This document shows positions 151-15,738 of a stretch of 52,553 nucleotides of DNA, one piece after another. Source of the DNA: an uncultured Gammaproteobacteria bacterium (GTDB lineage Bacteria > Patescibacteriota > Microgenomatia > Levybacterales > UBA12049); assembly GCA_964635045.1 (NCBI GenBank), contig CAZWMJ010000005.1, positions 1 to 52,553 of the forward strand, read 5' to 3'. A model generated the notes under the pieces. The model worked only from the letters and a program-made list of their open reading frames with translations. It ran no database searches and was not told the origin of the DNA. Positions within the stretch are counted from its first letter, which is position 1. The number at the start of each line of letters is the position of its first letter. The translations under genes and the position numbers were made by a program.

Positions 151-363
151 TTCTTCTTAATTGTTATCGCATACATAAGGTATTACCTGGAACACATGGA
201 GCATTTGTTGCCAGAAAGCTTAACTCTCATTCATGAAATTGAAACGGATGATCCAAGCTGTATTGATGCCTGCTGGCATAGAAGATTTGAGTCAAAAAGG
301 AAAAATGGCGAATGGTTTGATCTTAATTCTTCCGACGTAAAATCATTTAAGAGGCGAAGGTGA
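151..363 (+). pseudogene. C-terminal remnant of a T5orf172/MUG113-type GIY-YIG-superfamily protein
   Basis: Manual translation from ATG 196: MEHLLPESLTLIHEIETDDPSCIDACWHRRFESKRKNGEWFDLNSSDVKSFKRRR*. It resembles the family C-terminus (IxTDDPxxIExxWHxRFxxKRxNGEWF). An in-frame TGA at 148-150 leaves no N-terminal half. Confidence 0.6.
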
Positions 364-492: not shown

Positions 493-1545
493 CTAAATTA
501 GCTGAGATATTTTGTCACCGAGCTCTGACGTAGTTAGCGGGTTTGGTGAAATATCTTTGGTGCCAAAACCATCTTCAATTGTTTTTTTAACAGCGTTTAC
601 AACTGTTTCACTTTCTTCTGCTAGATCAAAACTGTATTTCAACATCATGGCGGCAGACAGAATCGAGCCGATGGGATTAGCCGTATTTGTACCGGCGGCT
701 TTGGGAAAAGAGCCATGAATTGGTTCATAGAGTGATATTTTTTCTCCCAAAGAGGCAGACGGCAAAAGTCCGATTGAGCCGGCAATCACCGATGCTTCAT
801 CAGACAGAATATCGCCGAAGATATTATCGGTTAAGATTACATCAAACATAATCGGCCGCTTAATTATCTGCATGGCGGCGTTGTCAACGTACATATATTC
901 ACAAGTAACATCGGGAAAATTTTTAGCGTATTCCATCACCGTTTCCCGCCAGAGCTTTGATGTTTCCAAAACGTTGGCTTTATCAACAAGCGTAACCTTT
1001 TTATTTCTTTTTCTGGCTAGTTCAAAGGCAATTTTGGCAACGCGCAAAATCTCTTTCTTACTATAAATATTAGTTTCAAAAGCTGTTTTATCAATATTTT
1101 TTCTGCCCCGGGGTTTGCCAAAATACAATCCTCCTGTTAGCTCGCGAACGATAACAAAATCAACATTTTGCACAACTTCTTTTTTAAGCGGAGATGTTTC
1201 TATTTGTGGAAATGAAAAAATTGGCCGGATGTTGGCAAATAGACCAAGTTGTTGACGAAGCGCCAGCAGTCCCTGTTCGGGGCGGACTTTATTTTTGGGA
1301 TTGCTGTCGTATTTTGGATCTCCCACCGCTCCCAGCAAAATGGCGTCGGCGTCTTGGCAGATGGTAATTGTTTCCTTGGGCAATGCAGAACCTGTTTTAG
1401 CAATAGCGGAAGCGCCTATCAGAGCATTATTGAACACAAATTGGTGGCGAAATTTTGTGCTCAATTTTTTGAGTACTTTTATTGCTTCATTTATGACTTC
1501 CGGGCCTACACCGTCGCCTGATAATACCGCAATCGTTTTTTTCAT
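493..1545 (-). CDS. leuB: 3-isopropylmalate dehydrogenase
   Basis: GDGVGPEV, RPEQGLLALR, NIFGDILSDEAS and EPIHGS motifs. Confidence 0.97.
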   Translation of the reverse strand: MKKTIAVLSGDGVGPEVINEAIKVLKKLSTKFRHQFVFNNALIGASAIAKTGSALPKETITICQDADAILLGAVGDPKYDSNPKNKVRPEQGLLALRQQLGLFANIRPIFSFPQIETSPLKKEVVQNVDFVIVRELTGGLYFGKPRGRKNIDKTAFETNIYSKKEILRVAKIAFELARKRNKKVTLVDKANVLETSKLWRETVMEYAKNFPDVTCEYMYVDNAAMQIIKRPIMFDVILTDNIFGDILSDEASVIAGSIGLLPSASLGEKISLYEPIHGSFPKAAGTNTANPIGSILSAAMMLKYSFDLAEESETVVNAVKKTIEDGFGTKDISPNPLTTSELGDKISQLI

Positions 1546-2135
1546 ATCGAAAAATCGTTTCTCCTTTTCCTTTCAAAGGCAAAAATTTGCGATTGTAAAC
1601 TTAATAAATAATCAATATCGTCATACTCTTTAATAAGACACATTTTTCGATAAGGATCAAGAGGGAATTTTTCTTTAATATTGATATTTTCAATTTCAAT
1701 AGTTTGGTTTGGGATATCAATATTAACAATTGTTTTATGATTTATTTTTACCTCAGCAAAAAGTTTATTTAAAAAAGTTTGCGAAACCTGTACGGGTAGA
1801 AGTTGATTTATTAAGGCATTATTTTTGAAAATATCGGCAAAAGAGCTGGAAATTACAGCATCAAAACCATAGTCTTTCAATGCCCAAGCAGCGTGTTCCC
1901 GGCTTGAACCAATGCCGAAATTTCGGCCCGCCGCCAGTATTTTTCCCTTGAATGTTTTATCGTTTAATACAAAATCTTTTCTTGGTTTGTTGTTTGAGTC
2001 AAAGCGCCAGTCGCGAAAAAGATGCTGGTCAAAACCTTCCCGCGTTACTGCCTTAAGAAAGCGCGCCGGGATAATCTGATCGGTATCAATGTTTTCCATT
2101 GGCAGTGGTACGCAGGTTGAGAAAATTTTCTTCAT
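1542..2135 (-). CDS. leuD: 3-isopropylmalate dehydratase small subunit
   Basis: [13 protein letters not shown] and [15 protein letters not shown] motifs; 4-nt overlap with leuB. Confidence 0.97.
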
Positions 2136-3538
2136 AGTAATTCTCTTGGGTCGGTTATGCGACCGGTTAAAGCCGACGCGGCCGCTGTTAATGGACTGGC
2201 CAAAAACGTGCGGGCACCGGGACCCTGACGGCCTTCAAAATTTCTATTTGAGGTAGAGATACAATATTTTCCCGAGGGAATTTTATCTTCGTTCATGCCC
2301 AGGCAGGCCGAGCATCCGGGGCCCCGTAGTTCAAAACCAGAATCTTTCAGAATTTTATCAATTCCCTCTTTGCGAGCTTGAGTTTCCACTTGCCTTGAAC
2401 CGGGGACGACGAAAACTTCCACATCGTCCGCTTTTTTTCTTCCTTTAACAATGTGCGCTACCATACGTAGATCTTCAATGCGGGAATTGGTGCAGCTTCC
2501 CAAAAAGACATAATCAACTTTTTGATCTTGTATTTTTTTACCGGGTTTTATGTTCATATAATTTACGGCTTTGCGAAAACTACTGCGCTGACTCTCCATT
2601 TGAAAATTATCTTCGGTGGGAATGTGTTGGCTGATTTTAATTCCCATGCCTGGATTAGTTCCATATGTCACCATCGGTTCAATGTCAGAAGCGTCAAAAG
2701 CGACCCGTTTGTCATATTTAGCCCCTTTGTCGGTAGGCAAGGTTTGCCAATTCCGCAAAGCAGAATCCCAGTTTTTTTCTTTTGGTGCAAACGGTCTGCC
2801 TTTCATGTATTGATATGTGGTTTCATCAGGCGCAATCAAGCCGCCCCGCGCCCCCATCTCAATGCTCATGTTACAAATAGTCATGCGGGCTTCCATGGAA
2901 AGATTTTTAATAGTTGAGCCGGTGTATTCCACAAAATAGCCCGTGCCGCCGCCGGTTGATATTTTGCTGATAATGTAAAGGATGATATCTTTTGACACCA
3001 CGCCTTTTCCCAATTTACCATTTACTTCAATATTCATAGTTTTTGGTTTGTTTTGCAGGATGCATTGACTGGCCAAGACTTGTTCTACTTCGCTGGTTCC
3101 GATGCCAAAGGCCACCGCCCCAAAAGCGCCGTGGGTGGAGGTGTGGCTGTCGCCGCAGACAATGGTCATGCCGGGTTTAGTAATGCCCAGCTCCGGACCT
3201 ATGATATGAACAATCCCCTGAAAAGGATGTCCCATGCCGTAAAGACGGATGCCAAACTCCGAACAGTTTTTGGTAAGTTTTTCTACCTGAATTTTGGATA
3301 ACAATTCTTTAATCGGCAGATGCTGATTTTTAGTCGGCACGTTGTGGTCGGCCGTAGCCCAAGTTCTATCGGGTCGGGCGACTTTTATTTTTCTTCGTCT
3401 TAGTCCGTCAAAAGCCTGCGGAGTTGTCACCTCGTGAATTAAATGCGCGTCTATATAAAGCGCGTCAGGATATCCAACTTTTCGCTGCACAACATGAGCT
3501 TCCCAAATTTTGTCAAAAAGCGTTCGCGGTTTATTCAT
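2132..3538 (-). CDS. leuC: 3-isopropylmalate dehydratase large subunit
   Basis: [44 protein letters not shown] and [12 protein letters not shown] motifs; Fe-S cysteines present. Confidence 0.97.
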
Positions 3539-3562
3539 AAAAACATTCTATCATAAAATTTT

Positions 3563-4138
3563 CTATTTAGCGCGTTTTAGGCGGTTCTTAAAGGTTGTGA
3601 ACTGTTCCTTAAATTTTTCATTTACTTCTTTGAATAATTCCGGTTTACCATCTATACTAGATAGTATGGAGTCCAACTTCTTTCGCTCTTTTTCGTCGCT
3701 TCTTTTGATAATTTCTTCAAGAATAAATTCGGGCAAAAAATACATGGAGTACCTGCGTTTGAAATTATACAAAGAGTAAGGGATATATTTCTCTTCAAGC
3801 GTATGTTCATATATCTTTTTTCCTTTTTTTGGAATCCTCCCAATAACCAGGCGAAAGCCACTGCCGGAGAGTGTTAACCAAGCGTTAACTCTGGCAACAG
3901 TATTAAAGCCAACTCTCAAAGCGGTTCGTATTTCTTCGTATGTTTTGCCGTTAATTAATAATCTTGCAACCTCCAACCGTTTTGCTAACATTTCAAGTTC
4001 TTGAGGGCCAAGTAAATCTGTTAAAAATTGTGCCGCTTCCTCTTTATTTTTAAGAGAAGTAATTGCCTCGCAAAAAGCTATTAAAAGTTTTTGTCTTTCT
4101 TCTTTATTCAATTTTGGAATTCTTGCAAACTTCGCCAT
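3563..4138 (-). CDS. TrpR-like (YerC/YecD family) HTH repressor with C-terminal extension
   Basis: FLTDLLGPQELEMLAKRLEVARLLINGKTYEEIRTALRVGFNTVARV matches the Trp repressor fold. Confidence 0.85.
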   Translation of the reverse strand: MAKFARIPKLNKEERQKLLIAFCEAITSLKNKEEAAQFLTDLLGPQELEMLAKRLEVARLLINGKTYEEIRTALRVGFNTVARVNAWLTLSGSGFRLVIGRIPKKGKKIYEHTLEEKYIPYSLYNFKRRYSMYFLPEFILEEIIKRSDEKERKKLDSILSSIDGKPELFKEVNEKFKEQFTTFKNRLKRAK

Positions 4139-4141
4139 TTA

Positions 4142-4176
4142 TATCCATACTATAGAGTATGAATAGTAGTTGTCAA
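4142..4176 (-). promoter_or_regulatory. sigma70 promoter for trpR-like-leuCDB with overlapping palindromic operator
   Basis: Minus strand TTGACA (4176-4171), 16 nt, TATAGT (4154-4149); inverted repeat CATACT-ATAG-AGTATG at 4146-4161. Confidence 0.65.
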
Positions 4177-4210
4177 GAGAGGGAGACGTATATGCTATAA
4201 TGGCGCTGTT

Positions 4211-5056
4211 ATGCTTGGCGAGGGACATAGAAGTATTGATTATAGATATTTTGATGAAGAAGTTGAAGGACCGTATCGAGGTATTATTCGAACTGGCAGT
4301 TATGGCTTAGTGTCGCTTGTTCGAGCGGATTTTGTACAGCAAGGAGTAGATAAGGCATTTAAGTCGAAAGCCAGATGGGGTTTGCGGTTAGGCGATTTTT
4401 TTAGCGGAGTTCGTCGTTCTTCTACGGCCGAAGCGTTTGACATAGGAGCAGTTACGCATCGGGTGATAGATGAGGGGGTAGCTAGAGAAGATGATATTGG
4501 AAGATTTCCCAGAGACGTAAAAAAAAGAAGCGATCTTATCAAACTTGCCAATATTATAGCGGGTATGGCGAGTTTGTATGGACATCGCGTTCTTCAAGAA
4601 CAAAGAACGGGAAATATTGGGCAACCTTATACTTTAGGTTTACAATTGTCCGATTTTTTGGAAGTGGTTCCGCCAGAGGTTGCCGCAAGAGTTCTTTTTG
4701 CCGCATCAGATCCTGATATCGCCCAAACAATTCTAAAAGGACAAGGCTCACTTCGAGGTCTTCGGCATATTGACGTGCAGCCTCATGCCGTTGAAGCAGT
4801 TGTTCTTTTGCCGAAAGACGCTCGGCACGAGATTTTTACACAAATGGTAGCGCTTGAGCCGGGAATAGGAGGAAGGGCAAATCGATTTTTTGGGGTGATT
4901 GCTTCCAACTGGGCAAACAGGACTTCGGATTATTGTGGCCAAACGCTCATATATCAAAACCTACAAGGCGACAGGGCCATGAGGCAAATTTTAGAAATGC
5001 AGACAGATTTAGCAGAACTTGGACCGCTTGTTAGAGGTGAGGCGGTCAGGAGTTAG
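4211..5056 (+). CDS. hypothetical protein (281 aa), opposite orientation inside the ilv/leu cluster
   Basis: Long ORF filling the trpR-ridA gap; TGcTATAAT at 4193-4201 just upstream; no recognisable motif. Confidence 0.7.
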
Positions 5057-5432
5057 AGATAAGGCCAATTGCCTCGATTTCGACAAGTGCTCCTTTGGGG
5101 AGACTTAAGACTTCAACTGTGGCACGGGCAGGTTTGCCGGTAAAAAACTTGGCATAAATCTCGTTCATTTTGGCAAAATCATTGATGTTTTTAAGATAAA
5201 CTGTGGTTTTAACCACTTTTGTCAAATCAGAACCGGCCGCCTCCAAAACAGCCTCGATATTTGTAATAACTTGTTTAACCTGATTTTCCAGCCCTTCAGC
5301 CAGACTGCCGGTTACAGGATCCATGCCGATTTGCGCCGCGCAGAAAACAAATCCTCCCGCCACCACCGCCTGTGAATACGGCCCAATTGCCTTCGGCGCT
5401 TTATTGGTTTGAATTGATTTAATTTTACTCAT
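5046..5432 (-). CDS. ridA: RidA/YjgF family enamine-imine deaminase
   Basis: [28 protein letters not shown] and LVEIEAI motifs. Confidence 0.93.
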
Positions 5433-7186
5433 GATGTTACTGCTCCCGTGCTGGCGCTTGAGACCAGTTTGGCGTATTTGGCCAAGACGCCTCTATTGTA
5501 TTTTGGTTTTGGCACCCGCCACTGACCTTTTCGTTTCGCCAGCTCACTGCTTGCCACTTCCAGATTAACTTCTCTTTTGGCCAAATCAATTGTAATTCTA
5601 TCTCCCTCTTTTATCAAGGCAATGGTGCCGCCCGCTTGAGCTTCGGGGGTAATATGGCCAATGGTGATTCCGTGGGTGCCGCCGGAGAAGCGGCCGTCGG
5701 TTATAAGCGTCACATCTTGTCCCAGACCCGCGCCCATCAGGGCAGCAGTAGGAGAGAGCATCTCCCGCATGCCCGGACCGCCTTTAGGCCCCTCATAGCG
5801 GATAACCATCACATCTCCTTTGTTAATCCTTTTTTGCAGAATAGCATCAAGAGCATCTTCTTCCCGTTCAAATATCCGGGCCGGGCCCTCAAACTTTTTG
5901 ACTTCGCGGCCGGAAAGCTTGATGATGGCTCCCTCGCGGGCCAAGTTGCCGTAGATAATGATCATGTGGTGTTCGGGTTTAGCCAACGGTTTATCAATCG
6001 GATAGATAACATTTTGACCTTTGGGGAAATCGGGAGCAGTTTGCAAATTTTCTGCCACGGTTTTTCCGGTGACCGTCAAACAATCGCCATGAATAAGTCC
6101 GGCCCGCAAAAGCATTTTCATCACCATCGGTATTCCTCCGATATTATCCAAGTCTGCCATGACATATTGACCAAAAGGCTTGAAATTGCCCAGAAGCGGC
6201 ACTTTTTTGGCAATTCTGCTAAAGTCATCAAGATTTAATTTAATTTCTGCTTCATGAGCTAAGGACAAAAGATGGAGTACCATGTTGGTGGAGCCGCCCA
6301 GAGCCAAGGCCACGGTGATGGCATTTTCAAAAGCCTTTTTGGTCATAATATCACGCACGTGAATATCTTTTTCTAAAAGATGAAAAAGGGCCTTGGCGGT
6401 TTCAATGCTGTCGCGGCGTTTTTTATCGGAAATGCGGTTTTTTTCATCCACTGCCGGATGTGAGGCGCTACCCGGAATACTCATACCCAATGCCTCAAGA
6501 ACCGAGGCCATGGTATTGGCGGTGTACATGCCCCCGCAGGAGCCGTTGCCCGGACAACTGCGGCATTCTATTTCATGAAAATCCTTTTCACTCATCTTGC
6601 CCGCCGAGTACTGTCCAATTGCTTCAAAAGTGCTAACAATAGTTAAGTCTTGGCCTTTATAATGACCCGGCAATATTGTTCCGCCATAAAGAGTGATGCC
6701 GATACTGTTGTTTCTAGCCAGAGGAATAAGAGAAGCGGGAATTGTCTTATCGCATCCTGATAGTGTTATTGCCCCGTCTGCCGCGTAGGCTTCATGCATC
6801 ATTTCAATGGAGTCGGCGATTAGCTCCCGTGAAGGAAGCGAATATTTCATGCCTTCCATACCCATGGTTTCTCCGTCGGTGACCACCGGCGTGCCAAAAA
6901 TAATCCCCTTGCCGCCCTGCTTTTCCAGCTCGTCCATTATTAAATTTCCTAAATCGTAAATATGGGCGTTGCAGGGAGTGATATTGGTAAAAGGACAGGC
7001 CACAGTTATAAGAGGTTTGGTAAAATCGTTATCTTTAAAACCTACGGCCCTCATCATGGCCCGGGCATGAGCCCGTTTTACCCAATCTTTGCCGTTTAGA
7101 CTTCCCGTCAAAGCGGTACTGCGTATTTTTAGGTCCTGGCAGTCGCAGTTTTCACAATCTTCACAATGGCCGGTATTTTTTTTCAT
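5429..7186 (-). CDS. ilvD: dihydroxy-acid dehydratase
   Basis: [46 protein letters not shown] and TDGRFSGG motifs. Confidence 0.97.
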
Positions 7187-8673
7187 ACAATCTTTTGCAG
7201 TCCGTCAAGATAAGCCTTGACCGATGCCACCACAATATCGGTATCGGCGCCAAAACCAAAATAAATGTTGTTTTTATAATTAAGCTGAATATGCACCTTG
7301 CCGATGTCGTCGCTGCCCCCAGTTATGGCCTGCACCAAATACTCTTCCAACAAAACTTTTTTGTTGACAATTTTGTTAACCGCGTTAAAAGAAGCATCAA
7401 CAGGGCCGTTTCCCGAGGCCTTGGCAGTTTTTTCCACTCCCTTAATTTTAAGCCTTATTTCTGCCGACGGCTTTGTTTTGGTACCGGAAGAGACATTAAG
7501 CGACACAAGAGCCAGACCGGTTTCAGCACCCTTTTGGCCCATCAGCACGTGTAGATCATCGTCATTAATATCCTTTTTTTTGTCGGCAAATTCCAGGAAT
7601 TTTTGATACAGACTGTCAAGTTTTTCCTGTGAGATTTCGTAGCCCAGTCTTTCCAAGTGATGGCGCAGAGCCGATCTTCCGGAACGGGCTGTTAAAACAA
7701 GTTGCGACTGAGTAATTCCCACATCCTGCGGGTTGATAATTTCGTAGTTTAGTCTATTTTTCAAAACCCCGTTTTGGTGAATACCGGAGGAGTGGGCAAA
7801 GGCGTTTCGCCCGACGATGGCCTTATTGGCCTGAACAGGCATGCGCATAAGACGGGATACAAGGCGGGAAGTTCGGGCAATTTTTTCGGTATTGATATTG
7901 GTTTTACTAGCAAGATCCTGACGAGTTTTGATAATCATTACCACTTCCTCTAACGCGGTGTTTCCCGCCCGCTCTCCCAAACCATTGACAGTTACTTCTA
8001 TTTGCGTGGCGCCATTGATAACAGAAATGATAGTATTGGCAGTGGCCAGGCCCAAATCGTTATGGCAATGAACAGAAACGATTACTTTGTCAATTCCTTT
8101 GACATTTTCAAATAAGTATTTTATTTTTGCTCCAAATTCATCCGGCAGGCAGTAGCCGGTGGTGTCGGGAATATTTACAGTGGTGGCTCCGGCTTTGATT
8201 GCTTCTTCAATAAAGCGGGCTAAAAAGGCGTTTTCCGTTCGTCCGGCGTCCATGGCGGAAAATTCCACATCGTGGGCAAATTTTTTGGCGTATTTTATTG
8301 CGTCAATGCCCTGCTGAAGAATTTTTTCTCTCGTTGAACGAAACTGATATTTAATGTGTACGTCGGAACTGCTGATAAAAGTGTGAATTCTTTTATTTTT
8401 GGCTTTTTCCAGTGAAGATGCCGCCGCGTCAATATCCTCTTTAATGGCTCGGGCAAGGGCGCAGATAACCGGCCGTCTGACTGTTTTTGAAACTTCAATA
8501 ATAGATTTGAGATCTCCCGGGCTGGAAATGGGAAACCCTGCCTCAATAATATCAACGCCTAAATCGTCCAAAGCTTGCGCCACCTCAATTTTTTCAATGG
8601 TATTTAATTGACAGCCCGGCACCTGCTCCCCGTCTCTAAGTGTAGTATCAAAAACAAAAATCTGCCGTTTCAT
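7183..8673 (-). CDS. leuA: 2-isopropylmalate synthase
   Basis: [25 protein letters not shown] and GNGPVDA motifs. Start moved to ATG 8673 (ATGA overlap with the ilvC stop); the ORF-track extension runs through repeat DNA. Confidence 0.95.
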
Positions 8674-9788
8674 TTCTTTACCTCGCCCGCCATCGCTACG
8701 CTCAGGCGTTGCGGGCGGGTCCTTTCCGGGCGAAGACCTGTACCAGACGGTACGGGTCGCAGTTCTCTCACTTTCGCTCCTGCTCTCCACATTTCTGAAT
8801 TTCTCATTTCTAAGAGTTCTTTTTCTAACCCTTTTTTGTAGTCAGGTTTACTGTTGGCTTTAATTACTACTTGCGCTTCATGTCCGTTTTTTACTTTTTG
8901 ATACAATTCCTCAAAAACCGGCTCCACCGCTTTTCTAAATTTGTGCCGCCAATCCAGCGCTCCTCTTTGAGCGGTGGTGGAACAGTTGGCGTACATCCAG
9001 TCCATGCCGTTTTCCGCAATTAATGGGATTAGGCTTTGAGTCAGTTCCTCCACCGTTTCATTAAACGCCTCGCTGGGGCTGTGTCCCATCCTTCGCAAAA
9101 TGTTGTATTGAGCTTCCATAATACCGGCCGTAGCTCCCATCAGCACTCCCCGCTCGCCGGTGAGATCGCTGAACACCTCTTTTTCAAATGTAGTTTCAAA
9201 TAGGTAACCCGATCCAATGCCAATTCCCATAGCCAAAACTTTTTCTCTCGCCTTTCCTGTGGCGTCCTGATAGAGAGCAAAACTGCTATTTATTCCCTTT
9301 CCTTCCAAAAAGAGTTTACGAACCGTTCTGCCGGAACCTTTGGGGGCTACCAGAATAACATCGACGGTTTTTGGCGGAACAATACCGGTGTGTTTTTTGT
9401 AGGTAATGCCAAAGCCATGCGAGAAATAGAGCGCCTTACCTTTTGCTAGATGCCTTTTAATAGTTGGCCAGGCTTCAATTTGTCCGGCATCGGACAGCAA
9501 ATAGGCAATAATTGTACCCCGTCCGGCCGCTTCTTCTATTTCAAAAAGCGACTTATTTGGTTTCCATCCATCAGTTACGGCTTTCTTCCAGGAGTCGCCG
9601 CCTTTTCTTTGGCCGACAATCACATTAAAGCCGTTGTCGCGCAAATTAAGAGCCTGCGCCGGTCCCTGAACGCCATAGCCGATAACAGAAATAACTTCGT
9701 TTTTAAGCGTCTGTTTGGCTTTTGAGAGAGGAAATTCACTTCTAGTTACCACTTCCTCTGCGACGTCGCCAAATTTCATTTTTGTCAT
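8670..9788 (-). CDS. ilvC: ketol-acid reductoisomerase with a repeat-derived C-terminal tail
   Basis: [21 protein letters not shown] and [12 protein letters not shown] motifs; N-terminal [10 protein letters not shown] as in Bacteroidetes/fungal-type KARI. Confidence 0.95.
8681..8720. repeat. palindromic element (CCCGCCATCGC...GCTCAGGCGTTGCGGGC family) in the ilvC 3' end
   Basis: cctcgcccgccatcgctacgctcaggcgttgcgggcgggt; both arms shared with 29281-29328. Confidence 0.8.
8735..8758. repeat. 24-bp imperfect palindrome, in frame in ilvC
   Basis: gacctgtacc-agac-ggtacgggtc (9/10 bp stem); the protein reads [12 protein letters not shown]. Confidence 0.65.
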
Positions 9789-9798
9789 AAAATCTCCT

Positions 9799-11463
9799 TT
9801 AGCTAAATTTTTTATTGAGATAATTTACCAGTCTTCTTAGTCCTTGACGCAATACATCGTCTTCGCAGCCAAACGAGATGCGGATGTGATTTTCTCCGCC
9901 CGGCCCAAAAGGCGAGCCGGGAACAACCGCCACTTTGGCTTGTTTTATTAGCTCAACAGCAAATTTTCTATCGTCAACAGGTTTGGTAATTTTGGGAAAA
10001 GCATAATAGGCGCCCTGTATGGGAGTAGATTGTAAAAATGGCGTCTTGGCTAATTCTTCCTCCACAATTTTTCTTCGCCGCACGTAAGCCTTTTTATACT
10101 CATCATAAACATTTTTGCCCTCAAGTGCTGAAAGAGCCGCGTATTGGGATGGGGCGGCGGGACAGGTAACAATGGCATCATGAACCTTAAAAATTCTGTC
10201 GATAAGTGGTTGACTGGCTACAATATAGCCGATTCTCCAGCCGGTCATGGCGTATGATTTGGAAACTCCAAAAACCGAGATGATTTTACTGCCGGCGCTA
10301 TGAAGGCTGGCAATACTGACATGTTTTTTTCCGTCGTAAACAAAATTTTCATACATTTCATCGGAGATGATAATTAAATCGTGTTTACGGGCTATTTTTA
10401 TAATATCGGTCAGTTCCTTTTTACTATAAACTTTGCCTGTTGGATTGCTGGGATTGCAAATCACTATGGCCCGCGTTTGGGGGGTGATGGCTTTTTCCAA
10501 AGATTCGGTATTTAACAGCCACCCCTCTTTAGTTTCTTCCATAGGCACATAAATAGGCGAGCGGCCGCGCAAAGCAATCCTTATTTGTGTAATATGTGGA
10601 TTGTAATTGGGCGATGGCATTAAGATATCATCCTGCGGATCAAGAATGCTTAAGAAAATTGCCATCATTGCTTCCATTGCGCCGTGGGCGACAATTACTT
10701 GAGAAGGGGAAACAGCGATGCCGTTATCCCGTTTGACCTTTTTGGCAATTGCCGCCCGCAGTGGTTCAATCCCATAGCCGGCCGTATATTTATCGGTGAG
10801 ATTTTGGTCCATTGCCCGCTTGACTGCCTGTTTTATATGAGCGGACGTGAAAAAGGATGGAGTTCCCTGAGCCAGAGAAATAACGTCCTTATTCTGTTTG
10901 GCTAATAACTCTATCTGTTTTATGACGGAAACCTCAATGGTGGAAGTAACATGCGGACTATCCACCTTCTTGGTTGGCTCTTTCTCCAAAGCAATTCTGC
11001 CCGAGCGAACAACATCCTCAATACCAAATGGTACAAGCTTAGATCTTAGATGATCAATCTCCTCTTCGGTACCTGTCTTTTCTACAATGACATAGTTTTT
11101 GCCTCTATGTGTAATATTGCTCCCTGTGCGGTAAGCAATATGCTGAATGTCCTGGGCTTCTTTCGGGCTTTTGTCTTTTACCTTAAAAAGGGCAATTTCT
11201 TTGAAAATAAGGTCTTTGTCGCCGTGCGCATGCACACTTAGCACCTCAATAATTCTTTGCAGTTGATTGGTGATTTTAGCGATAATTTCGGGATTTTCTT
11301 TGACCGCAATGGTAAAGCGCGAAACGTGTTTTTCTTCGATTTCCGAAACAGTCAGACTTTCAATATTGATTTTGCGTCTAAGAAACTGATTGGCGATATG
11401 ATACAAAACGCCCGGCCTATTTTCGGAAAATACGGTTATTGTTGTTGTTTGTTTTTGTTCCAT
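9799..11463 (-). CDS. ilvH: acetolactate synthase regulatory subunit (ACT domains) fused to a class I PLP aminotransferase
   Basis: aa 1-160: ENRPGVLYHIANQFLRRKINIESLTV and VVRSGRIAL. C-terminal part: QGTP, CNPSNPTG, SDEMY, SKSYAMTGWRIG (PLP lysine) and PGSPFG. Confidence 0.9.
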   Translation of the reverse strand: MEQKQTTTITVFSENRPGVLYHIANQFLRRKINIESLTVSEIEEKHVSRFTIAVKENPEIIAKITNQLQRIIEVLSVHAHGDKDLIFKEIALFKVKDKSPKEAQDIQHIAYRTGSNITHRGKNYVIVEKTGTEEEIDHLRSKLVPFGIEDVVRSGRIALEKEPTKKVDSPHVTSTIEVSVIKQIELLAKQNKDVISLAQGTPSFFTSAHIKQAVKRAMDQNLTDKYTAGYGIEPLRAAIAKKVKRDNGIAVSPSQVIVAHGAMEAMMAIFLSILDPQDDILMPSPNYNPHITQIRIALRGRSPIYVPMEETKEGWLLNTESLEKAITPQTRAIVICNPSNPTGKVYSKKELTDIIKIARKHDLIIISDEMYENFVYDGKKHVSIASLHSAGSKIISVFGVSKSYAMTGWRIGYIVASQPLIDRIFKVHDAIVTCPAAPSQYAALSALEGKNVYDEYKKAYVRRRKIVEEELAKTPFLQSTPIQGAYYAFPKITKPVDDRKFAVELIKQAKVAVVPGSPFGPGGENHIRISFGCEDDVLRQGLRRLVNYLNKKFS

Positions 11464-11467
11464 ATGC

Positions 11468-13153
11468 TTACTCCAAAACTATTTCATCGCAGGCAGCACC
11501 TGATGGTACCATCGGAAAAACATTTTCTTCTTTCTCGCAGACCACCTCAAGCAAGTACGCCTCTTTTGCCGAAAGAAGTTTATCTATTTCTCCATTAAGT
11601 TTTGAGCGCTTATCAACTGATTGGGCCTTAATATAAAAGCCTTTGGCAACAGCCACAAAATCAGGATTTTTTAAGTCCACAAATGAGTAGCGCTTTTCAA
11701 AAAAAAGCTGCTGCCACTGGCGGACCATGCCAAGAAAGTTATTATTCAGTATAACTATTTTTAGCGGGATTTGGTCCTGGGCAATGGTTGCCAGCTCTTG
11801 AACGGTCATTTGAAACCCTCCATCGCCGATAACTACGATGACCTGTCGATTGGGAGAGGCGATTTTAGCGCCAACGCCGGCCGGCAGGGCAAATCCCATT
11901 GTCCCCAATCCGCCCGATGTGATAAAACTATTCGGTTTTACAAAATTATAGTAGCGCGCCGCTATCATTTGGTTCTGGCCAACGTCTGCCACAATAATTG
12001 CTTCTCCTTTTGTTTTTTCCGAAAGGAGTTGTACCACTTGTACCATTTTTATCTCATCATGCTTTGACAGCATTTCCTTTTTGGTCACTTTTTCGTATTC
12101 GATTTGATCGTATTTTCGAAACTGCGACAGCCAGCCGTCGTGAGTATTTTTCTTTATTATTGGCAAAAGCTTTGAGAGTGCTTGCTTGGCGTCGGCGTTT
12201 ATAGCCACATCGGCCTTAACATTTTTATTAAGTTCGGCGCTGTCAATATCTATGTGTATTATTTTTGCCTGCCTTGCGTAATCGTCAACTTTGCCGGTCA
12301 CTCTATCGTCGAAACGCATCCCTACAGCCAAAATCACATCAGCTTTGTTAGTCAAAATGTTTGCTCCATAGCGTCCATGCATGCCCAAAAGCCCCACATA
12401 TAATGGGTGATTGGCCGGCATGGCAGAAAGTCCGTGCAGTGTTGTGCCAACAGCAATGCCGCTTTTTTCAGCAAATGCCAACACTTCTTTCTCAGCATGA
12501 GCAATAAGAATGCCATGACCTATCAGCATAAATGGCCTTTTTGCCTTATTTATAAGCTGTGCCGCCTTTTTAAGATCATTTTGACTTATCGAATAGGTCG
12601 GATTATAACCTGGAATTTTTATTGCTTTTTGCGGTTTATAATCAAAAGTTTCAATTTGCGCATTTTTGGTGATATCAATTACCACCGGTCCGGGTCTGCC
12701 CGAGCCGGCTATAAAAAATGCTTTTTTAAGAATGTACGGAATTTCCGAAGCGTTGGTTATTTGATAATTCCATTTTGCAATAGGCGTTGTTATTCCAATA
12801 ACATCTGTTTCCTGGAAAGCATCCGTGCCAACTAAGTGCGCTGTCACCTGCCCGCTTATAAAAACCACCGGCACCGAATCCAGCATGGCATCGGCAATGC
12901 CCGTAACTAAGTTGGTGGCGCCCGGACCGGAGGTCACCAACACCACTCCCGGTTTGCCTGTTATTCGGGCGTATCCTTCGGCGGCATGTGCCGCCCCCTG
13001 TTCATGCCGCACCAAAATATGGCGTATTTGTTTATTATAGTCGTACAGCGCATCGTATACAGGCATGATAGCGCCTCCCGGATAGCCAAAAATTACTTTT
13101 ACTCCTTCGTTAACGAGCGATTTACAAACAGCTTGCGCTCCTGTTATTTTCAT
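11468..13153 (-). CDS. ilvB: acetolactate synthase catalytic subunit
   Basis: FGYPGGA, RHEQGAAHAA, TSGPGATN, SGGLGTMG and GDGGFQM...NN ThDP motif. Confidence 0.97.
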   Translation of the reverse strand: MKITGAQAVCKSLVNEGVKVIFGYPGGAIMPVYDALYDYNKQIRHILVRHEQGAAHAAEGYARITGKPGVVLVTSGPGATNLVTGIADAMLDSVPVVFISGQVTAHLVGTDAFQETDVIGITTPIAKWNYQITNASEIPYILKKAFFIAGSGRPGPVVIDITKNAQIETFDYKPQKAIKIPGYNPTYSISQNDLKKAAQLINKAKRPFMLIGHGILIAHAEKEVLAFAEKSGIAVGTTLHGLSAMPANHPLYVGLLGMHGRYGANILTNKADVILAVGMRFDDRVTGKVDDYARQAKIIHIDIDSAELNKNVKADVAINADAKQALSKLLPIIKKNTHDGWLSQFRKYDQIEYEKVTKKEMLSKHDEIKMVQVVQLLSEKTKGEAIIVADVGQNQMIAARYYNFVKPNSFITSGGLGTMGFALPAGVGAKIASPNRQVIVVIGDGGFQMTVQELATIAQDQIPLKIVILNNNFLGMVRQWQQLFFEKRYSFVDLKNPDFVAVAKGFYIKAQSVDKRSKLNGEIDKLLSAKEAYLLEVVCEKEENVFPMVPSGAACDEIVLE

Positions 13154-13156
13154 AAG

Positions 13157-14086
13157 TTATACCTTTATTTTTGTGCACCACTTCTCATACTTTTTTTCCC
13201 TTCCATAAACGATGGAAAAATAAAGCTGCTGAAGTTTTGCCGTAATGGGACCCCGTTTCCCATCGCCGATGGTACGGTTATCGACCTTGGCAATCCAGGC
13301 CACTTGTACGCCGGTTCCGCTAAAGAATGCTTCATCGGCAATATAAAGCTCCGTTCTATCAATTGTTCGGACTTGTGTTTTAATACCCAAATCCTCTGCC
13401 AGTTGTAAAATAGTGCGTCTGGTTATTCCTTCAAGAATATCATCAGTTACGGGCGGGGTTAGCAAAACGCCGTCCCGCACCACAAAAATATTTTCGGCAG
13501 AACCCTCAGACAGATGACCGTCTTCTGTCAGCATGATCGCCTCGTCAAAACCCAGCTTTGTGGCTTCCTGCCGGGCAAGGGCGGAATTTATGTAGGAGCC
13601 GGAAATTTTGCCGCGGGCGGGAATAGCGTTGTCGGAAATTCGCCTCCACGATGACACCATGGCCGAAAGACCCTTATCAACCGGTAGGTATTCGCCAAGA
13701 GGCATCATATAAAGCGCGAATTCAAAGGCGGCGTCTCTTTCAAGGTTGGGCGATAGATTAGTACTGCCGGCGTAGGCAAAAGGCCGCATATAGGTATCGG
13801 TGGCCGGCTTATTGTTTTTAACAAGTTCAAGGGTAATCTTTTTGAGCTGCGCCTCATCGTATGGTATGTGCGTTCCTATAATCTTCAAAGAAGAAAGAAA
13901 CCGTTTGTAGTGATCTTCTATTCGAAACAGAGATAAATATTTACCCTTTTTATTATAGTATCCCCTAATACCGCCGAACACACCCGTGCCATATTGCAGG
14001 GCGTTAGTCATAATAGGAACATTGGCGTCCTCCGTTTTGACAACTTTGCCTTGAAAAAATATATGTGGAAAATATTCGCTTTTCAT
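13157..14086 (-). CDS. ilvE: branched-chain amino acid aminotransferase
   Basis: LQYGTGVFGGIRGY, GKISGSYINS, SEGSAEN and ILEGITR motifs; start moved to ATG 14086, downstream of the terminator. Confidence 0.95.
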   Translation of the reverse strand: MKSEYFPHIFFQGKVVKTEDANVPIMTNALQYGTGVFGGIRGYYNKKGKYLSLFRIEDHYKRFLSSLKIIGTHIPYDEAQLKKITLELVKNNKPATDTYMRPFAYAGSTNLSPNLERDAAFEFALYMMPLGEYLPVDKGLSAMVSSWRRISDNAIPARGKISGSYINSALARQEATKLGFDEAIMLTEDGHLSEGSAENIFVVRDGVLLTPPVTDDILEGITRRTILQLAEDLGIKTQVRTIDRTELYIADEAFFSGTGVQVAWIAKVDNRTIGDGKRGPITAKLQQLYFSIVYGREKKYEKWCTKIKV

Positions 14087-14089
14087 ACT

Positions 14090-14114
14090 AAAAACCCGCC
14101 CATACGGCGGGAAG
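14090..14114 (-). terminator. attenuator terminator hairpin
   Basis: Minus strand CCCGCC-GTATG-GGCGGG followed by TTTTT. Confidence 0.85.
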
Positions 14115-14149
14115 ATTTGTTGCCTTGCCAACTGGCGCACCTCCCGCCC
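14090..14149 (-). promoter_or_regulatory. transcription attenuator with mutually exclusive antiterminator and terminator
   Basis: GGCGGGAGG just after the leader stop pairs with CTTCCCGCC (9 bp, one G:U), the 5' arm of the terminator. Confidence 0.8.
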
Positions 14150-14197
14150 TTAGCGAGTAACGAGAAGAACAACAATTGACAAACTTATGTTAGTCAT
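14150..14197 (-). CDS. ilv/leu leader peptide MTNISLSIVVLLVTR (15 aa)
   Basis: ATG ACT AAC ATA AGT TTG TCA ATT GTT GTT CTT CTC GTT ACT CGC TAA; run of I-V-V-L-L-V codons; below the ORF-track cutoff. Confidence 0.85.
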   Translation of the reverse strand: MTNISLSIVVLLVTR

Positions 14198-14206
14198 GTA
14201 AATACT

Positions 14207-14235
14207 ATTGTAGTACACTTTTTTTGAAAAAGCAA
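14207..14235 (-). promoter_or_regulatory. sigma70 promoter of the ilv operon
   Basis: TTGCTT (14235-14230), 17 nt, TACAAT (14212-14207); TACTA-CAA-TAGTA palindrome over the -10. Confidence 0.7.
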
Positions 14236-14236
14236 G

Positions 14237-14884
14237 TTATCCGGTTTGGGATGCTAAAACACGTTCGTTGGACAAGCCGAAGGTGGTGCCGTGCTTTTTG
14301 AACATACTCCAATATTGTTTTTGTTTTTTCTTGCTTTTGAACATGGATAGCCATGAAGTAGCGTCTTCAATTCTCATTCGGGCGTGTTTTACAAAATTCA
14401 ATAGCCACGCGAAAAAGTTTTCATGATAAGCGCCTATTTTTGCCGGAATTTGTTCTACCACTATTTGTTTGTAGGTAATTTGAAGTTCCTGAGATTTTGA
14501 GATAAGCACTCTTAACTCAAAAAGAATCTCCTGAATTTTTTGTGTAACGCTTTGGTCTTTTTCTCTCTCAATTCTTTCTCCCGCATGCAAAATTTCCCGT
14601 CTGTAGTCAATGCCCGGTTCCACATTCCAGGCCTTTTTTTCGGAACGTTTTTCCGCCAGTTGGCTTAAATTTAATTCCTGTCCTTCCAAAAGATCTCCGC
14701 CACTGCGCGTTCCGTCACTGCGTTCATGTCCTCCTAACATTTGATTCCAAATACTATTTACCGATTCTTTGGCAAAATCAGAAGTAAAAGATCGGGCAAC
14801 TGCGCCGGGAATAGACTTTACATTCTCAAAAGAGTCTTGCTCGACAAGTCTTTCTGTTTTTACTTTTGTTTTATTACTTTTCAT
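14237..14884 (-). CDS. conserved Microgenomates hypothetical protein (DUF5660-like)
   Basis: C-terminal YWSMFKKHGTTFGLSNER and GIDYRREI motifs; family name from recall. Confidence 0.6.
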   Translation of the reverse strand: MKSNKTKVKTERLVEQDSFENVKSIPGAVARSFTSDFAKESVNSIWNQMLGGHERSDGTRSGGDLLEGQELNLSQLAEKRSEKKAWNVEPGIDYRREILHAGERIEREKDQSVTQKIQEILFELRVLISKSQELQITYKQIVVEQIPAKIGAYHENFFAWLLNFVKHARMRIEDATSWLSMFKSKKKQKQYWSMFKKHGTTFGLSNERVLASQTG

Positions 14885-14898
14885 TATGGGTTACAATA

Positions 14899-15738
14899 TC
14901 ACAAATTTTTCAGAAAATCAAGTGTTTTTTGCTGACGCAAGATACCGGCCAAAAGATATCTGTTTGCTTCAAGGGCTTTTCTCTCTCCAGCGCTTTTGCC
15001 TTTTTGGACAGCTTCTTCGATTTCTTTATCATTTACCGTAATATGTTCATCCTCGGCAATTTTTTGCAGAGCAAATTCCAGTTTAAGATCGCCCTCCGCT
15101 TTTCTTTGATATTCGTCCCTAAGAGACTGAGGCGTTCTTCCGGATGAAGAAAGATACTGATCAAGGCTAAGGCCTAATTTTTTAACGTCGTCCAATGTTT
15201 GCGACAAAAGTCTTTCCACCTGCTGATCAAGAAGAATTTGAGGAACAACGACAGTCAGACCCCCTATAAGAGCGGCAATAATATCTTCAAACTTTGTCGG
15301 TAGAGGCTCCTTGCCCGGGACAATAATTTTACTTTTGGCTGTGACCGTTTGAATATTTTTTTTATAATCTCCAAGTTGAATTTCGGGGGTCTCGCAGGTT
15401 AACGCATAAAATTGCCAATCGCGCGGGGAAGTGATGGGATCATCCAGTTTCTCTACGTGAATTTTAGGAGTAATAATGGGTTTAATCGAATGTTCTTTGA
15501 TAGCCTCCAAATAATACTGAGGAAGCAGTTTTTTGAGCACTTCTTCTTTTACTTCTTCCCGATTTATTTTTTCCTCGGCAATTTTTTTTGGGGCCTTACC
15601 TTTTCTAAAACCGGGAACTGAGAGCGATTTAGCCTTTTTTACCAGCTCTTCTTCGAACGCCTTTTTTACGGCGTCATTGGGAATTGTTACGGTCAATTTT
15701 ACTGTCCCGTCTGATAATTTTTGCAATGCAGATATCAT
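14899..15738 (-). CDS. tig: trigger factor, short form (ribosome-binding plus C domain, no PPIase)
   Basis: GFRKGKAP signature; 279 aa; start moved to ATG 15738, outside the tRNA. Confidence 0.85.
   Translation of the reverse strand: MISALQKLSDGTVKLTVTIPNDAVKKAFEEELVKKAKSLSVPGFRKGKAPKKIAEEKINREEVKEEVLKKLLPQYYLEAIKEHSIKPIITPKIHVEKLDDPITSPRDWQFYALTCETPEIQLGDYKKNIQTVTAKSKIIVPGKEPLPTKFEDIIAALIGGLTVVVPQILLDQQVERLLSQTLDDVKKLGLSLDQYLSSSGRTPQSLRDEYQRKAEGDLKLEFALQKIAEDEHITVNDKEIEEAVQKGKSAGERKALEANRYLLAGILRQQKTLDFLKNL

Follow-up and report, generated by a model that had tools for sequence, protein, structure and literature searches.

The window (the whole 52,553-nucleotide stretch of DNA that was analysed) carries a cluster of ilv and leu genes, on the minus strand inside 493-14086, that is predicted to be a complete, working valine/leucine biosynthesis operon in the reduced genome of a member of the Levybacteria (CPR, Microgenomates). 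The ten-gene ilv/leu/ridA set listed in an earlier, sequence-only reading of this DNA is present: all ten named functions are encoded (Table 1), and each cluster gene scores above the curated cut-off of an NCBIfam equivalog or subfamily model, with nearly the entire profile covered. Details of that reading need amending. The IlvH function (ACT and ALS_ss_C domains) is there, not as a separate gene but as the N-terminal domain of a fusion protein; the "4-nt translational couplings" are real at five junctions, where start and stop codons overlap as ATGA (ilvC/leuA, with the leuA start at 8673, leuA/ilvD, ilvD/ridA, leuC/leuD and leuD/leuB), while the remaining junctions are gaps of 3-10 nt; and the cluster is not contiguous, a 1.5-kb insert of two unrelated genes, both lacking in the nearest relatives, dividing ridA from leuC. 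"Intact catalytic motifs" are directly evident in the fused aminotransferase, whose PLP-lysine motif and class I residues are invariant in its family; for the other enzymes what is confirmed are full-length matches above cut-off. The ilvE start codon (ATG at 14086) coincides with the end coordinate given for the cluster in the earlier reading, and also fits relatives of 309 aa. IlvC has a C-terminal 66-nt insertion (about 8680-8760) that relatives lack, judging by a gap between blastn blocks and by the sequence itself. Valine and leucine are covered; synthesis of isoleucine is unproven, because no ilvA (threonine dehydratase) is found on the contig.

Table 1. Features of the operon and its surroundings in the window
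Feature	Position	Strand	Evidence
MUG113/T5orf172 (GIY-YIG-associated) gene remnant, just past the operon end	196-363	+	PF13455, E = 5.4e-8, C-terminal part only
leuB, 3-isopropylmalate dehydrogenase	493-1545	-	TIGR00169, 466 bits (cut-off 353)
leuD, 3-isopropylmalate dehydratase small subunit	1542-2135	-	NF002458, 231 bits (cut-off 167)
leuC, 3-isopropylmalate dehydratase large subunit	2132-3538	-	NF004016, 764 bits (cut-off 510)
YerC/YecD TrpR-related gene, 24 nt upstream of leuC	3563-4138	-	TIGR02531, 58 bits (cut-off 42); PF01371
Near-consensus promoter TTGACA-16-TATAGT, upstream of the yerC-like gene and leuCDB	4149-4176	-	Consensus scan
281-aa ORF in insert, convergent with ridA	4211-5056	+	
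ridA, enamine/imine deaminase	5046-5432	-	TIGR00004, 159 bits (cut-off 106)
ilvD, dihydroxy-acid dehydratase	5429-7186	-	NF002068, 768 bits (cut-off 644)
leuA, 2-isopropylmalate synthase, 496 aa with C-terminal regulatory region	7183-8673	-	NF002086, 722 bits (cut-off 532)
ilvC, ketol-acid reductoisomerase	8670-9788	-	TIGR00465, 323 bits (cut-off 226)
ilvH::aminotransferase fusion, 554 aa	9799-11463	-	Pfam PF22629, PF10369, PF00155
ilvB, acetolactate synthase large subunit	11468-13153	-	TIGR00118, 728 bits (cut-off 538); profile 2-555 of 557
ilvE, branched-chain amino acid aminotransferase, 309 aa	13157-14086	-	NF005146, 375 bits (cut-off 279)
Predicted attenuator RNA	14090-14149	-	Folding and terminator scan
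Leader peptide ORF, MTNISLSIVVLLVTR followed by stop	14150-14197	-	ILV-rich ORF upstream of ilvE
Promoter-like element, TTGCTT (14235-14230), 17-nt spacer, TACAAT (14212-14207)	14207-14235	-	Read from sequence
DUF5660 gene (backbone flank)	14237-14884	-	Pfam
Short trigger factor gene, tig (backbone flank)	14899-15771	-	Pfam

The IlvH fusion and the two transcription units

Residues 1-166 of the fusion protein constitute an IlvH regulatory subunit (ACT plus ALS_ss_C) and residues 167-554 a class I/II aminotransferase, as delimited by Pfam. Clustered at 90% identity, the family comprises 119 or more other full-length clusters of about 560 aa, every taxon-named one of them CPR, and a single 50%-identity representative spans the fusion junction. 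The PLP-lysine motif and K402, N340, D368, Y371, R410 and R528 are invariant across it. The closest solved structures to the aminotransferase are 1DJU, 1GD9 and Thermus AspAT. What might it contribute? It would probably supply or recycle the amino-group donor, or else transaminate keto acids directly.

The genes fall into two predicted transcription units. The first consists of the promoter-like element, the leader ORF, the alternative hairpins and then ilvE-ilvB-ilvH::aminotransferase-ilvC-leuA-ilvD-ridA; the second starts from a separate near-consensus promoter, which agrees with the consensus at 11 of 12 positions, better than anything else in the first 15.9 kb, and continues with the YerC/TrpR-like gene and leuC-leuD-leuB. 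The 281-aa ORF of the insert has no Pfam or NCBIfam match and no counterpart among the selected related loci, including L001 and L087, which represent the lineage with the closest operon. Both insert genes have a GC3 of 0.33, which makes the 281-aa ORF backbone-like; the insert would have come later, dividing the operon into its two units. LeuB is the final gene of the block that the window has in common with L001 and L087.

The predicted attenuator

The promoter-like element lies 9 nt ahead of the leader ATG and is kept in L001 and L087. Because its -35 hexamer matches the sigma-70 consensus (which may not be that of CPR) at only three of six positions, it is missing from the list produced by the consensus scan. 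Ile, Val and Leu account for eight of the 15 residues of the leader peptide, six of them in one unbroken run. Leader ORFs of the same kind, ILV-rich and 13-17 aa long, precede ilvE in L001, L087, L084, L085 and L086. Each of the six loci also has a -10-like hexamer, 4-12 nt ahead of the leader ATG.

Downstream of the leader ORF, region 2 (GGGCGGGAGG, 14149-14140) and region 3 (CUUCCCGCC, 14114-14106) precede or overlap a terminator, CCCGCC-GUAUG-GGCGGG (14111-14095) followed by U5 (14094-14090), that was picked up by the scan. The minimum free energy fold of the attenuator RNA yields 1:2 and 3:4 hairpins; when the fold omits region 4, the 2:3 antiterminator comes to -22.4 kcal/mol. The leader ORF, both hairpins and the 2:3 alternative occur in all six loci, which come from different lineages. 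The operon thus seems to be under the control of a classical leader-peptide attenuator, on the strength of folding predictions and of an architecture conserved in only six, highly divergent, loci. The Rfam search returned no family at threshold on the attenuator (the best, Phe_leader, scored 17.6 bits against a gathering score of 55).

How would such a device work? With charged Ile, Val and Leu tRNAs plentiful, the ribosome would get to the leader stop codon and cover region 2; the terminator would then form, 3 nt ahead of ilvE, and transcription would stop. With charged tRNAs scarce, the ribosome would stall on the IVVLLV codons, region 2 would pair with the terminator's 5' arm, and RNA polymerase would read through. 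The enzymes of the operon would convert two pyruvate to 2-ketoisovalerate and valine and, with acetyl-CoA, also generate 2-ketoisocaproate and leucine; feedback would be exerted through the ACT domain of IlvH and the regulatory domain of LeuA. Because an ILV-rich leader and an antiterminator/terminator precede ilvE in each of the six loci examined, the anabolic role is probably one regulated by the supply of Ile, Val and Leu.

Host, spread and probable lateral origin

The sequence-only reading took the contig to be from a "putative CPR bacterium", and this is borne out: by the best matches of two of its proteins, the backbone is CPR (Levybacteria, Microgenomates). The taxon-specific names among the best matches of UvrA, encoded 28 kb from the cluster, are all Candidatus Levybacteria/Patescibacteria group (71-74% identity), and those of the trigger factor adjoining the cluster are likewise all Levybacteria/Patescibacteria group.

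Does the operon belong to that backbone, or is it that of a co-occurring L001/L087 relative, joined to a Levybacterium near 14.2 kb by the assembly? The operon lies at one contig end, L001/L087 identity and GC3 shift sharply at the boundary, and the DUF5660 gene ends in some 35 conserved nt that could serve as a bridging repeat. Against this stands a 2225-bp Logan contig, assembled separately from the single run SRR12113430 and recorded in two samples, which spans tig, DUF5660, leader and ilvE and is 100% identical to window positions 13595-15819, with no mismatch across the junction; Logan contigs are independent assemblies that may share the sample series of the window, and so are not necessarily independent samples. 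Two other runs yielded contigs over the adjacent backbone that end before the junction. The final 40 nt of DUF5660, moreover, look like the backbone lineage, and the switch in similarity comes at a gene boundary, as biological exchange would predict. Because an independent per-run assembly reproduces the boundary exactly, an assembly chimera is highly improbable.

The usual description of CPR genomes is that they lack amino acid synthesis (PMC13293708, PMC9166423), and the sequence-only reading framed the operon as an anomaly among them, an acquired island that reduces host dependence, provisions a host or takes up NAD(P)H and pyruvate in a fermenter. Taken to imply an outside origin, that reading becomes one of a non-CPR donor, with host feeding or the disposal of pyruvate and NAD(P)H during fermentation as the main use. 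The general description of CPR speaks for this, and so does the GC content of the operon, which is higher than that of the backbone. The anomaly itself has to be given up: the same operon, fusion and gene order recur in contigs of assemblies with the NCBI protein labels Levybacteria, Roizmanbacteria and Patescibacteria group, the fusion in at least 119 further clusters; the gene order is identical in L084, L085 and L086; and trp or thr genes adjoin the operon in some Microgenomates lineages. By these comparisons the operon type is common in the wider group and found in several Microgenomates lineages. That synteny, together with a single fusion family whose taxon-named close homologues are all CPR, argues against an outside donor, and a leader that reads charged Ile, Val and Leu tRNAs, combined with feedback domains, is the regulation expected of an operon serving its owner's translation, not of a sink. 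A non-CPR donor and such uses are thus very unlikely: nothing supports host provisioning or a redox/pyruvate sink, and the evidence points to the anabolic role, the only one of the three proposed with sequence support.

Wide spread combined with vertical inheritance was one of the refutations that the sequence-only reading had named. Because operon and fusion recur across CPR-labelled assemblies, the first half of that holds; this copy, on the other hand, looks laterally acquired. Homology to L001 and L087 (blastn) begins at 14314, no more than about 80 nt from the stop codon of DUF5660, and ends at about 560. Vertical descent would have the operon sitting beside DUF5660 since the ancestor of the window and L001/L087, with slowly evolving enzymes, fast tig and DUF5660 genes, and repeated loss in other Levybacteria. 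The tig-DUF5660-operon arrangement is indeed common to all three, biosynthetic enzymes are generally well conserved, and the ridA-ilvA pair that a core Levybacterium (L091) has at the site could be an operon remnant. Synonymous sites argue otherwise: seven cluster genes of the window are 87% identical to those of L001/L087, with a synonymous third-position identity of 0.63-0.65, far above the saturation baseline of 0.37-0.45 and equal to that between L001 and L087 themselves (0.65, at an overall identity of 0.89), whereas tig of the window is 46-49% identical to theirs, with a synonymous identity of 0.46. Nor are tig and DUF5660 fast genes: between L001 and L087 they are 89-90% identical, the operon 77-92%. 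The window trigger factor is closer to at least 119 other clusters (59-66%) than to those of L001/L087, whose identity to each of the 120 listed clusters, that of the window among them, is 46-54%; the backbone distance between the window and L001/L087 is that of four flanking genes. In 13 loci that have tig-DUF5660 and continue for 2.5 kb or more downstream, the operon is absent from the site. GC3 of the cluster is also unlike that of the backbone (0.43 vs 0.35, p = 3e-4) and matches the L001 operon, with some backbone genes, such as uvrA, reaching the cluster level. Vertical inheritance is thus unlikely.

The copy in the window is probably an intra-CPR lateral replacement or insertion, from another CPR lineage, with the direction of transfer read chiefly from GC3 and from the lack of the operon in backbone relatives. 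A block the size of the operon, bounded by the stop codon of DUF5660 and the end of leuB, would have come from a relative of the L001/L087 lineage and taken up the corresponding site, with recombination in conserved flanking genes as the probable route; past leuB the contig runs on for just 492 nt, which leaves only one boundary of the block to examine. The "acquired island" of the sequence-only reading survives as to lateral origin (phylogenetic, synonymous-site, presence/absence and GC3 discordance all speak for it) and not as to an origin outside the group, the closest operon being in a lineage that shares the backbone synteny. Taken whole, a predicted working Val/Leu operon of Microgenomates type, laterally exchanged from another CPR lineage, is the best explanation, and one that we hold with reasonable confidence.

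Comparison with known systems

Classical genomic islands (integrase-mediated, tRNA-associated) resemble the block in compositional offset, phylogenetic discordance and its absence at this site from the closest backbone relatives. Unlike them, it comprises exactly one operon, with no integrase, direct repeats or flanking tRNA found at the block. The lineage with the closest operon has it at an identical place in the backbone, which suggests that related genomes exchanged it by homologous recombination.

The IlvH/IlvN small subunit is recognizable in residues 1-166 of the fusion by its ACT_AHAS_ss and ALS_ss_C domains and by a match to the plant AHAS small subunit 6U9H; the familiar subunit, however, is free-standing, at about 165 aa, and that of the window is fused in frame to a 388-aa aminotransferase, an architecture with one 50%-identity family, in which every named taxon is CPR. 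Over their whole length, residues 170-550 align with class Ib aspartate/aromatic/prephenate aminotransferases (Pyrococcus horikoshii 1DJU and 1GD9; Thermus thermophilus AspAT 1BJW), with E-values of 1e-64 to 1e-79, and the SK..M.GWR PLP-lysine motif and other fold-type I residues of that class are invariant in the fusion family. The window enzyme differs in being fused to IlvH, and in its place within a branched-chain operon that already carries IlvE.

The Bacillus subtilis-type ilv-leu operon is ilvBHC-leuABCD. It also unites ilv and leu genes, for the shared and the leucine-specific steps, in a single operon; the window order differs in placing ilvE first and ilvD and ridA internally, with ilvH fused to an aminotransferase. 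Regulation also appears to differ, by a leader peptide instead of a T-box, none of which was found in the Rfam search.

Leader-peptide (ribosome-mediated) attenuators of branched-chain operons are those of Escherichia coli ilvGMEDA, ilvBN and leuABCD. Further examples are Corynebacterium glutamicum ilvBNC (PMC11857589, PMC10272879) and the ilv-leu attenuator peptide of Staphylococcus aureus (PMC5794164). The window case, predicted from sequence, differs from the known ones in its CPR (Microgenomates) host with no matching Rfam leader family, in the brevity of its leader (13-17 codons), which appears to be leaderless or almost so, and in controlling an operon that begins with ilvE. What it shares with them is the design: a short ORF packed with codons for the end products of the pathway, a leader stop codon adjoining region 2, and mutually exclusive antiterminator and terminator hairpins with a U-run directly 5' of the first biosynthetic gene.

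Gene content of the operon and the fused AHAS subunit

The proposal, made from the sequence alone, of a valine and leucine gene cluster at 493-14086 stands, with corrections: all of its enzymes score above curated NCBIfam equivalog or subfamily cut-offs over essentially the whole of each profile (the IlvH domains are recognized by Pfam). Every step from pyruvate to valine and leucine is encoded (AHAS large and small subunits, KARI, DHAD, IPMS, IPMI large and small subunits, IPMDH and BCAT), in the transcription order ilvE, ilvB, a fusion gene, ilvC, leuA, ilvD, ridA, a 1.5-kb insert, leuC, leuD, leuB. Five of the gene junctions are ATGA overlaps, that of leuA (start at the ATG at 8673) with the ilvC stop among them, and the rest are gaps of 3-10 nt; the true start of ilvE is the ATG at 14086, which is also where the sequence-only reading had ended the cluster. 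Family searches of the 52.5-kb contig found no IlvA or CimA as a source of 2-oxobutanoate for the isoleucine branch, and by score the LeuA homologue is an isopropylmalate synthase and not a CimA. The gene ilvA is present in L084, L085 and L086 (contigs from NCBI assemblies with more distant copies of the same operon type) and in L091 (a Levybacteria locus with the backbone synteny of the window).

Features of the operon, its leader and its insert (window coordinates)
Feature	Position	Strand	Basis or remark
Promoter-like element TTGCTT-17-TACAAT			first in DUF5660-ilvE intergenic region
Leader ORF MTNISLSIVVLLVTR	14197-14150	minus	15 codons
Region 2 segment GGGCGGGAGG			immediately 3' of leader stop codon
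Segment CUUCCCGCC			between GGGCGGGAGG and terminator
Terminator CCCGCC-GUAUG-GGCGGG + U5	stem 14111-14095		terminator scan; ends 3 nt ahead of ilvE ATG
ilvE	13157-14086	minus	NCBIfam
ilvB	11468-13153	minus	NCBIfam
554-aa fusion gene	9799-11463	minus	Pfam
ilvC	8670-9788	minus	NCBIfam
leuA	7183-8673	minus	NCBIfam
ilvD	5429-7186	minus	NCBIfam
ridA	5046-5432	minus	NCBIfam
Insert	3539-5045		splits operon between ridA and leuC
281-aa ORF	4211-5056	plus	convergent
Near-consensus promoter TTGACA-16-TATAGT	4176-4149	minus	ahead of YerC-like gene
YerC/TrpR-related gene	3563-4138	minus	family match; directly upstream of leuC
leuC	2132-3538	minus	NCBIfam
leuD	1542-2135	minus	NCBIfam
leuB	493-1545	minus	NCBIfam
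MUG113/T5orf172 C-terminal remnant	196-363	plus	GIY-YIG-associated type; 130 nt beyond leuB
109-aa GIY-YIG ORF	21646-21975	minus	adjoins tRNA-Gln

The leuA of L001 (3300027819, Ga0209514_10000564), one of two environmental contigs carrying the closest operon (the other is L087), encodes only 381 aa (12725-13870) and lacks the C-terminal LeuA_dimer regulatory domain that is retained in the leuA of the window, L087 and L084-L086 (495-497 aa); this truncation may represent a loss of leucine feedback in one lineage. Toward the 3' end of ilvC (window about 8680-8760), a 66-nt in-frame insertion that is absent in L001 and L087 holds a GC-rich inverted repeat, CCCGCC...GGCGGG, like the terminator stem ahead of ilvE.

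A separate ilvH gene had also been listed. The IlvH domains are real, but they belong to a 554-aa fusion: ACT_AHAS_ss (PF22629, E = 1.9e-15) and ALS_ss_C (PF10369, E = 5.9e-17) at residues 10-161 are followed by a class I/II aminotransferase domain, also complete, that spans residues 192-545 (Pfam). The N-terminal ACT and ALS_ss_C of the AHAS small subunit IlvH/IlvN are thus present, here as a domain and not as a gene of its own. End-to-end alignments (E 1e-64 to 1e-79) match the aminotransferase half to the aromatic and aspartate aminotransferases of Pyrococcus horikoshii and to Thermus AspAT, and across 20 aligned sequences of the fusion family neither the PLP-lysine motif nor the other fold-type I residues vary. 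Two functions for this half can be offered: 1) it might draw on aspartate or some other donor to regenerate glutamate for IlvE; 2) it might transaminate keto acids directly, possibly controlled by the valine-binding ACT domain. The biochemical question raised by the fusion is whether valine bound to the ACT domain controls transamination or whether being fused keeps the aminotransferase on the synthase.

Both genes of the insert are missing from the closest relatives, L001 and L087 included, and their GC3 (0.33) is backbone-like, the backbone being the window outside the operon. The YerC-like gene has its own near-consensus promoter; leuCDB has therefore probably become a transcription unit of its own with that gene at its head, and the TrpR-like protein could be its regulator. 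The 281-aa ORF has no family match at any threshold in Pfam or NCBIfam. Downstream of leuB, thrC was sought, as it is found there in L001; it is absent, and the 492 nt past leuB hold the MUG113 remnant. Small GIY-YIG genes similar in kind to the 109-aa ORF occur in L001 and L091.

The host genome and the occurrence of the operon within CPR

By its protein matches the backbone is CPR (Microgenomates, Levybacteria), as had been supposed. UvrA, encoded 28 kb from the cluster, has best matches 71-74% identical, and the trigger factor adjoining the cluster has matches at 59-66% identity that include Levybacteria bacterium GW2011_GWA1_37_16; all taxon-specific source names among the matches of these two proteins are Candidatus Levybacteria or Patescibacteria group. 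Rfam and protein family searches found no rRNA or ribosomal protein genes within the window. Might the junction of cluster and backbone be an artifact of assembly? A chimera is unlikely, since an independent assembler reproduces the junction. Three short contigs in single-run Logan assemblies encode the exact trigger factor protein of the window: one of 2225 bp (SRR12113430, recorded in two samples) matches window 13595-15819 at 100% identity, a stretch that takes in the trigger factor gene (tig), DUF5660, the leader ahead of ilvE and 492 nt of ilvE itself, while the two others hold only adjacent backbone and end before the junction. The same exact look-up, with the fusion protein of the window as the query, returned no match.

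The cluster had been taken to be alien to CPR, and for this clade that finds no support. The fusion protein has at least 119 other full-length clusters (at 90% identity), about 560 aa long and 50-89% identical to the window copy; those with taxon names come from Levybacteria, Roizmanbacteria and the Patescibacteria group. When a junction-spanning query was searched against 1.84 billion 50%-identity representatives, only one covered both sides of the fusion junction; by this measure, therefore, all copies of the fusion make up one fairly tight family. (A technical note: a species-genome scan with the fusion alignment settled on generic aminotransferase motifs, and the matches listed are all non-CPR aminotransferases at 32-40% identity.) Essentially the same gene order, ilvE-ilvB-fusion-ilvC-leuA-ilvD-ridA-leuC(D,B), recurs in L084 (GCA_016204465.1; fusion protein labelled Levybacteria), L085 (GCA_037132015.1; labelled Roizmanbacteria) and L086 (a 348-kb contig of GCA_026415975.1; labelled Patescibacteria group); an extra aminotransferase is present in two of these three, and an adjoining trp operon likewise in two of three. 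In L001, the closest relative, thrC and a gene for an aspartokinase/homoserine dehydrogenase lie downstream. General statements usually portray CPR bacteria as being without amino acid synthesis and hence obligately host-dependent, and allow "some exceptions" (PMC13293708, PMC9166423, PMC12114108); branched-chain pathways are mentioned for Gracilibacteria in one source. Judged by gene order and homologues, the operon is less unusual for CPR than the sequence-only reading assumed.

Discordance between operon and backbone

In L001 and L087 the operon lies at the same place as in the window, after tig-DUF5660. Between the window and these two contigs, the operon proteins are 64-93% identical, versus 46-49% for the trigger factor, 37-41% for DUF5660 and 42-50% for the glucosaminidase-like protein; between L001 and L087, the corresponding figures are 77-92% (operon proteins), 89% (trigger factor) and 90% (DUF5660). 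The operon of the window is 87% identical to those of L001/L087 and at most 71% identical to those of L084-L086 (three other operons compared). Third-position identity within identical residues, our measure of synonymous sites, is 0.63-0.65 in all three operon pairs among the window, L001 and L087, against a saturation baseline of 0.37-0.45 (comparison with the distant operons of L084-L086); for tig it is 0.46 in the window-L001 pair and 0.74 in the L001-L087 pair. The trigger factor of the window is 59-66% identical to at least 119 other clusters, while those of L001 and L087 share 46-54% identity with every one of the 120 clusters listed, that of the window included.

(The trigger factors are themselves short: in the window (14899-15771) and in all 119 listed clusters of relatives (P0242-P0360) they have only 273-329 aa, with Trigger_N and Trigger_C and without the FKBP-type PPIase domain; the JGI name is nonetheless FKBP-type isomerase. 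At its 5' end the called ORF of the window runs into tRNA-Leu(TAG) (15744-15825); the true tig start is therefore probably further downstream.)

An ilv/leu operon follows glucosaminidase-tig-DUF5660 in none of 13 loci examined, each of which has this synteny and 2.5 kb or more of sequence downstream (the matches listed in a metagenome trigger factor search gave ten usable backbone loci); beyond DUF5660, several of them run into thrS-infC-rpmI-rplT-pheST. At the site of the window operon, the locus of GW2011_GWA1_37_16, a core Levybacterium (L091/L092, 11472-13103), has only ridA and ilvA after DUF5660, which could be a remnant of the operon or a stand-alone threonine/serine deaminase module. 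The GC3 of the operon is 0.428 versus 0.346 for the backbone (Mann-Whitney p = 3e-4), with some backbone genes overlapping its range, and it agrees with that of the L001 operon (about 0.41). Nucleotide homology with L001 and L087 (blastn) extends from about 14314 to 560, covering everything between the ends of DUF5660 and leuB except the insert. A breakpoint inside DUF5660 at 14314, which blastn suggested, was rejected: in a six-way alignment the last 40 nt of DUF5660 resemble the backbone lineage, and the switch in similarity is consequently placed no more closely than within some 80 nt of the stop codon of DUF5660. As for features of mobility, no integrase was found, the nearest tRNA is 1.6 kb off, and the contig ends 492 nt past leuB.

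In our reading, two distantly related CPR lineages have laterally exchanged a block the size of the operon. This block would have integrated at the equivalent backbone position, most simply via recombination in the conserved flanking genes; its GC3 and its absence from backbone relatives suggest that the window genome is the recipient. The acquired island of the sequence-only reading accordingly survives, through its discordance with the backbone, only as an exchange within CPR.

There are 16 tRNA genes in the 52 kb of the contig (15744-17756, 21571-27147, 33274-33496 and 46932-48028), including four tRNA-Leu isoacceptors. A patch of low GC (18000-21300; 0.30-0.34, GC3 about 0.25) that directly follows an array of six of them may be a further segment of foreign origin; it encodes a sensor histidine kinase, a response regulator and a DUF922 protein. 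Two fusions are unusual: DFP (phosphopantothenate-cysteine ligase-like), class II aldolase and GNAT domains at 40659-42206, and an ATP-cone joined to an Mrr-type restriction endonuclease domain at 30095-30904.

A putative attenuator ahead of ilvE

The 150 nt between DUF5660 and ilvE have a four-part layout that is also present, with differing sequences, upstream of ilvE in L001, L087, L084, L085 and L086, where the leaders are likewise rich in Ile, Val and Leu and 13-17 aa long (among them MKNKVLSIVVLLIR, MKRFFSLIVVFLIILA and MVCSTVINVVLSP). In the minimum-energy fold of the window leader, the Ile/Val/Leu codon region pairs with the post-stop segment (1:2) and the terminator forms too (3:4); with region 4 withheld, the post-stop segment pairs with the 5' arm of the terminator (2:3) at -22.4 kcal/mol, and this 2:3 hairpin forms in all six loci under the same constraint. 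A -10-like hexamer lies 4-12 nt ahead of the leader ATG in each of the six, which suggests that the leader mRNA is leaderless or nearly so. From these folds we infer the architecture of classical ribosome-mediated attenuation. A T-box or other known leader RNA is ruled out by Rfam: in the window scan only tRNAs reached gathering scores, no leader or T-box family did so, and the best match in E-value mode was Phe_leader, at 17.6 bits versus 55.

If the attenuator is real, the operon would be expressed when the cell's own supply of charged Ile, Val or Leu tRNA is low. Of the roles that had been offered for the cluster, this favours the anabolic one and disfavours a metabolic sink or the provisioning of a host.

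Putting these elements together, we propose, with slightly less than even confidence, that one CPR clade (Levybacteria, Roizmanbacteria and relatives) keeps and trades self-regulated modules of amino acid prototrophy: an ilv-leu operon, which has a leaderless ribosome-mediated Ile/Val/Leu attenuator and whose AHAS regulatory subunit is fused, specifically in this clade, to an aminotransferase, would move as an operon-sized cassette between distant CPR genomes via recombination at conserved flanks. In the open-access literature we found no prior description of the IlvH-aminotransferase fusion, of a leader-peptide attenuator in CPR or of such cassette-like exchange, nor any account of this operon in Levybacteria, Microgenomates or CPR. 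If the proposal is true, the attenuator would be the first of its kind described in CPR, a concrete cis-regulatory mechanism for a group whose gene regulation is almost unknown, and the biosynthetic capacity of CPR would be dynamic and open to exchange, more than just a relic under loss. Part of the Microgenomates keeps a complete and apparently finely regulated Val/Leu pathway (relatives also have Ile, Trp and Thr genes) that appears able to pass between CPR lineages. The locus thus bears on the real host dependence of these lineages, on the design of media for their cultivation, and on whether CPR genome reduction is one-directional.

The predicted attenuator is alike in architecture to those of the enterobacterial ilv and leu operons. 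The likeness extends to the attenuator of Corynebacterium ilvBNC (PMC11857589).
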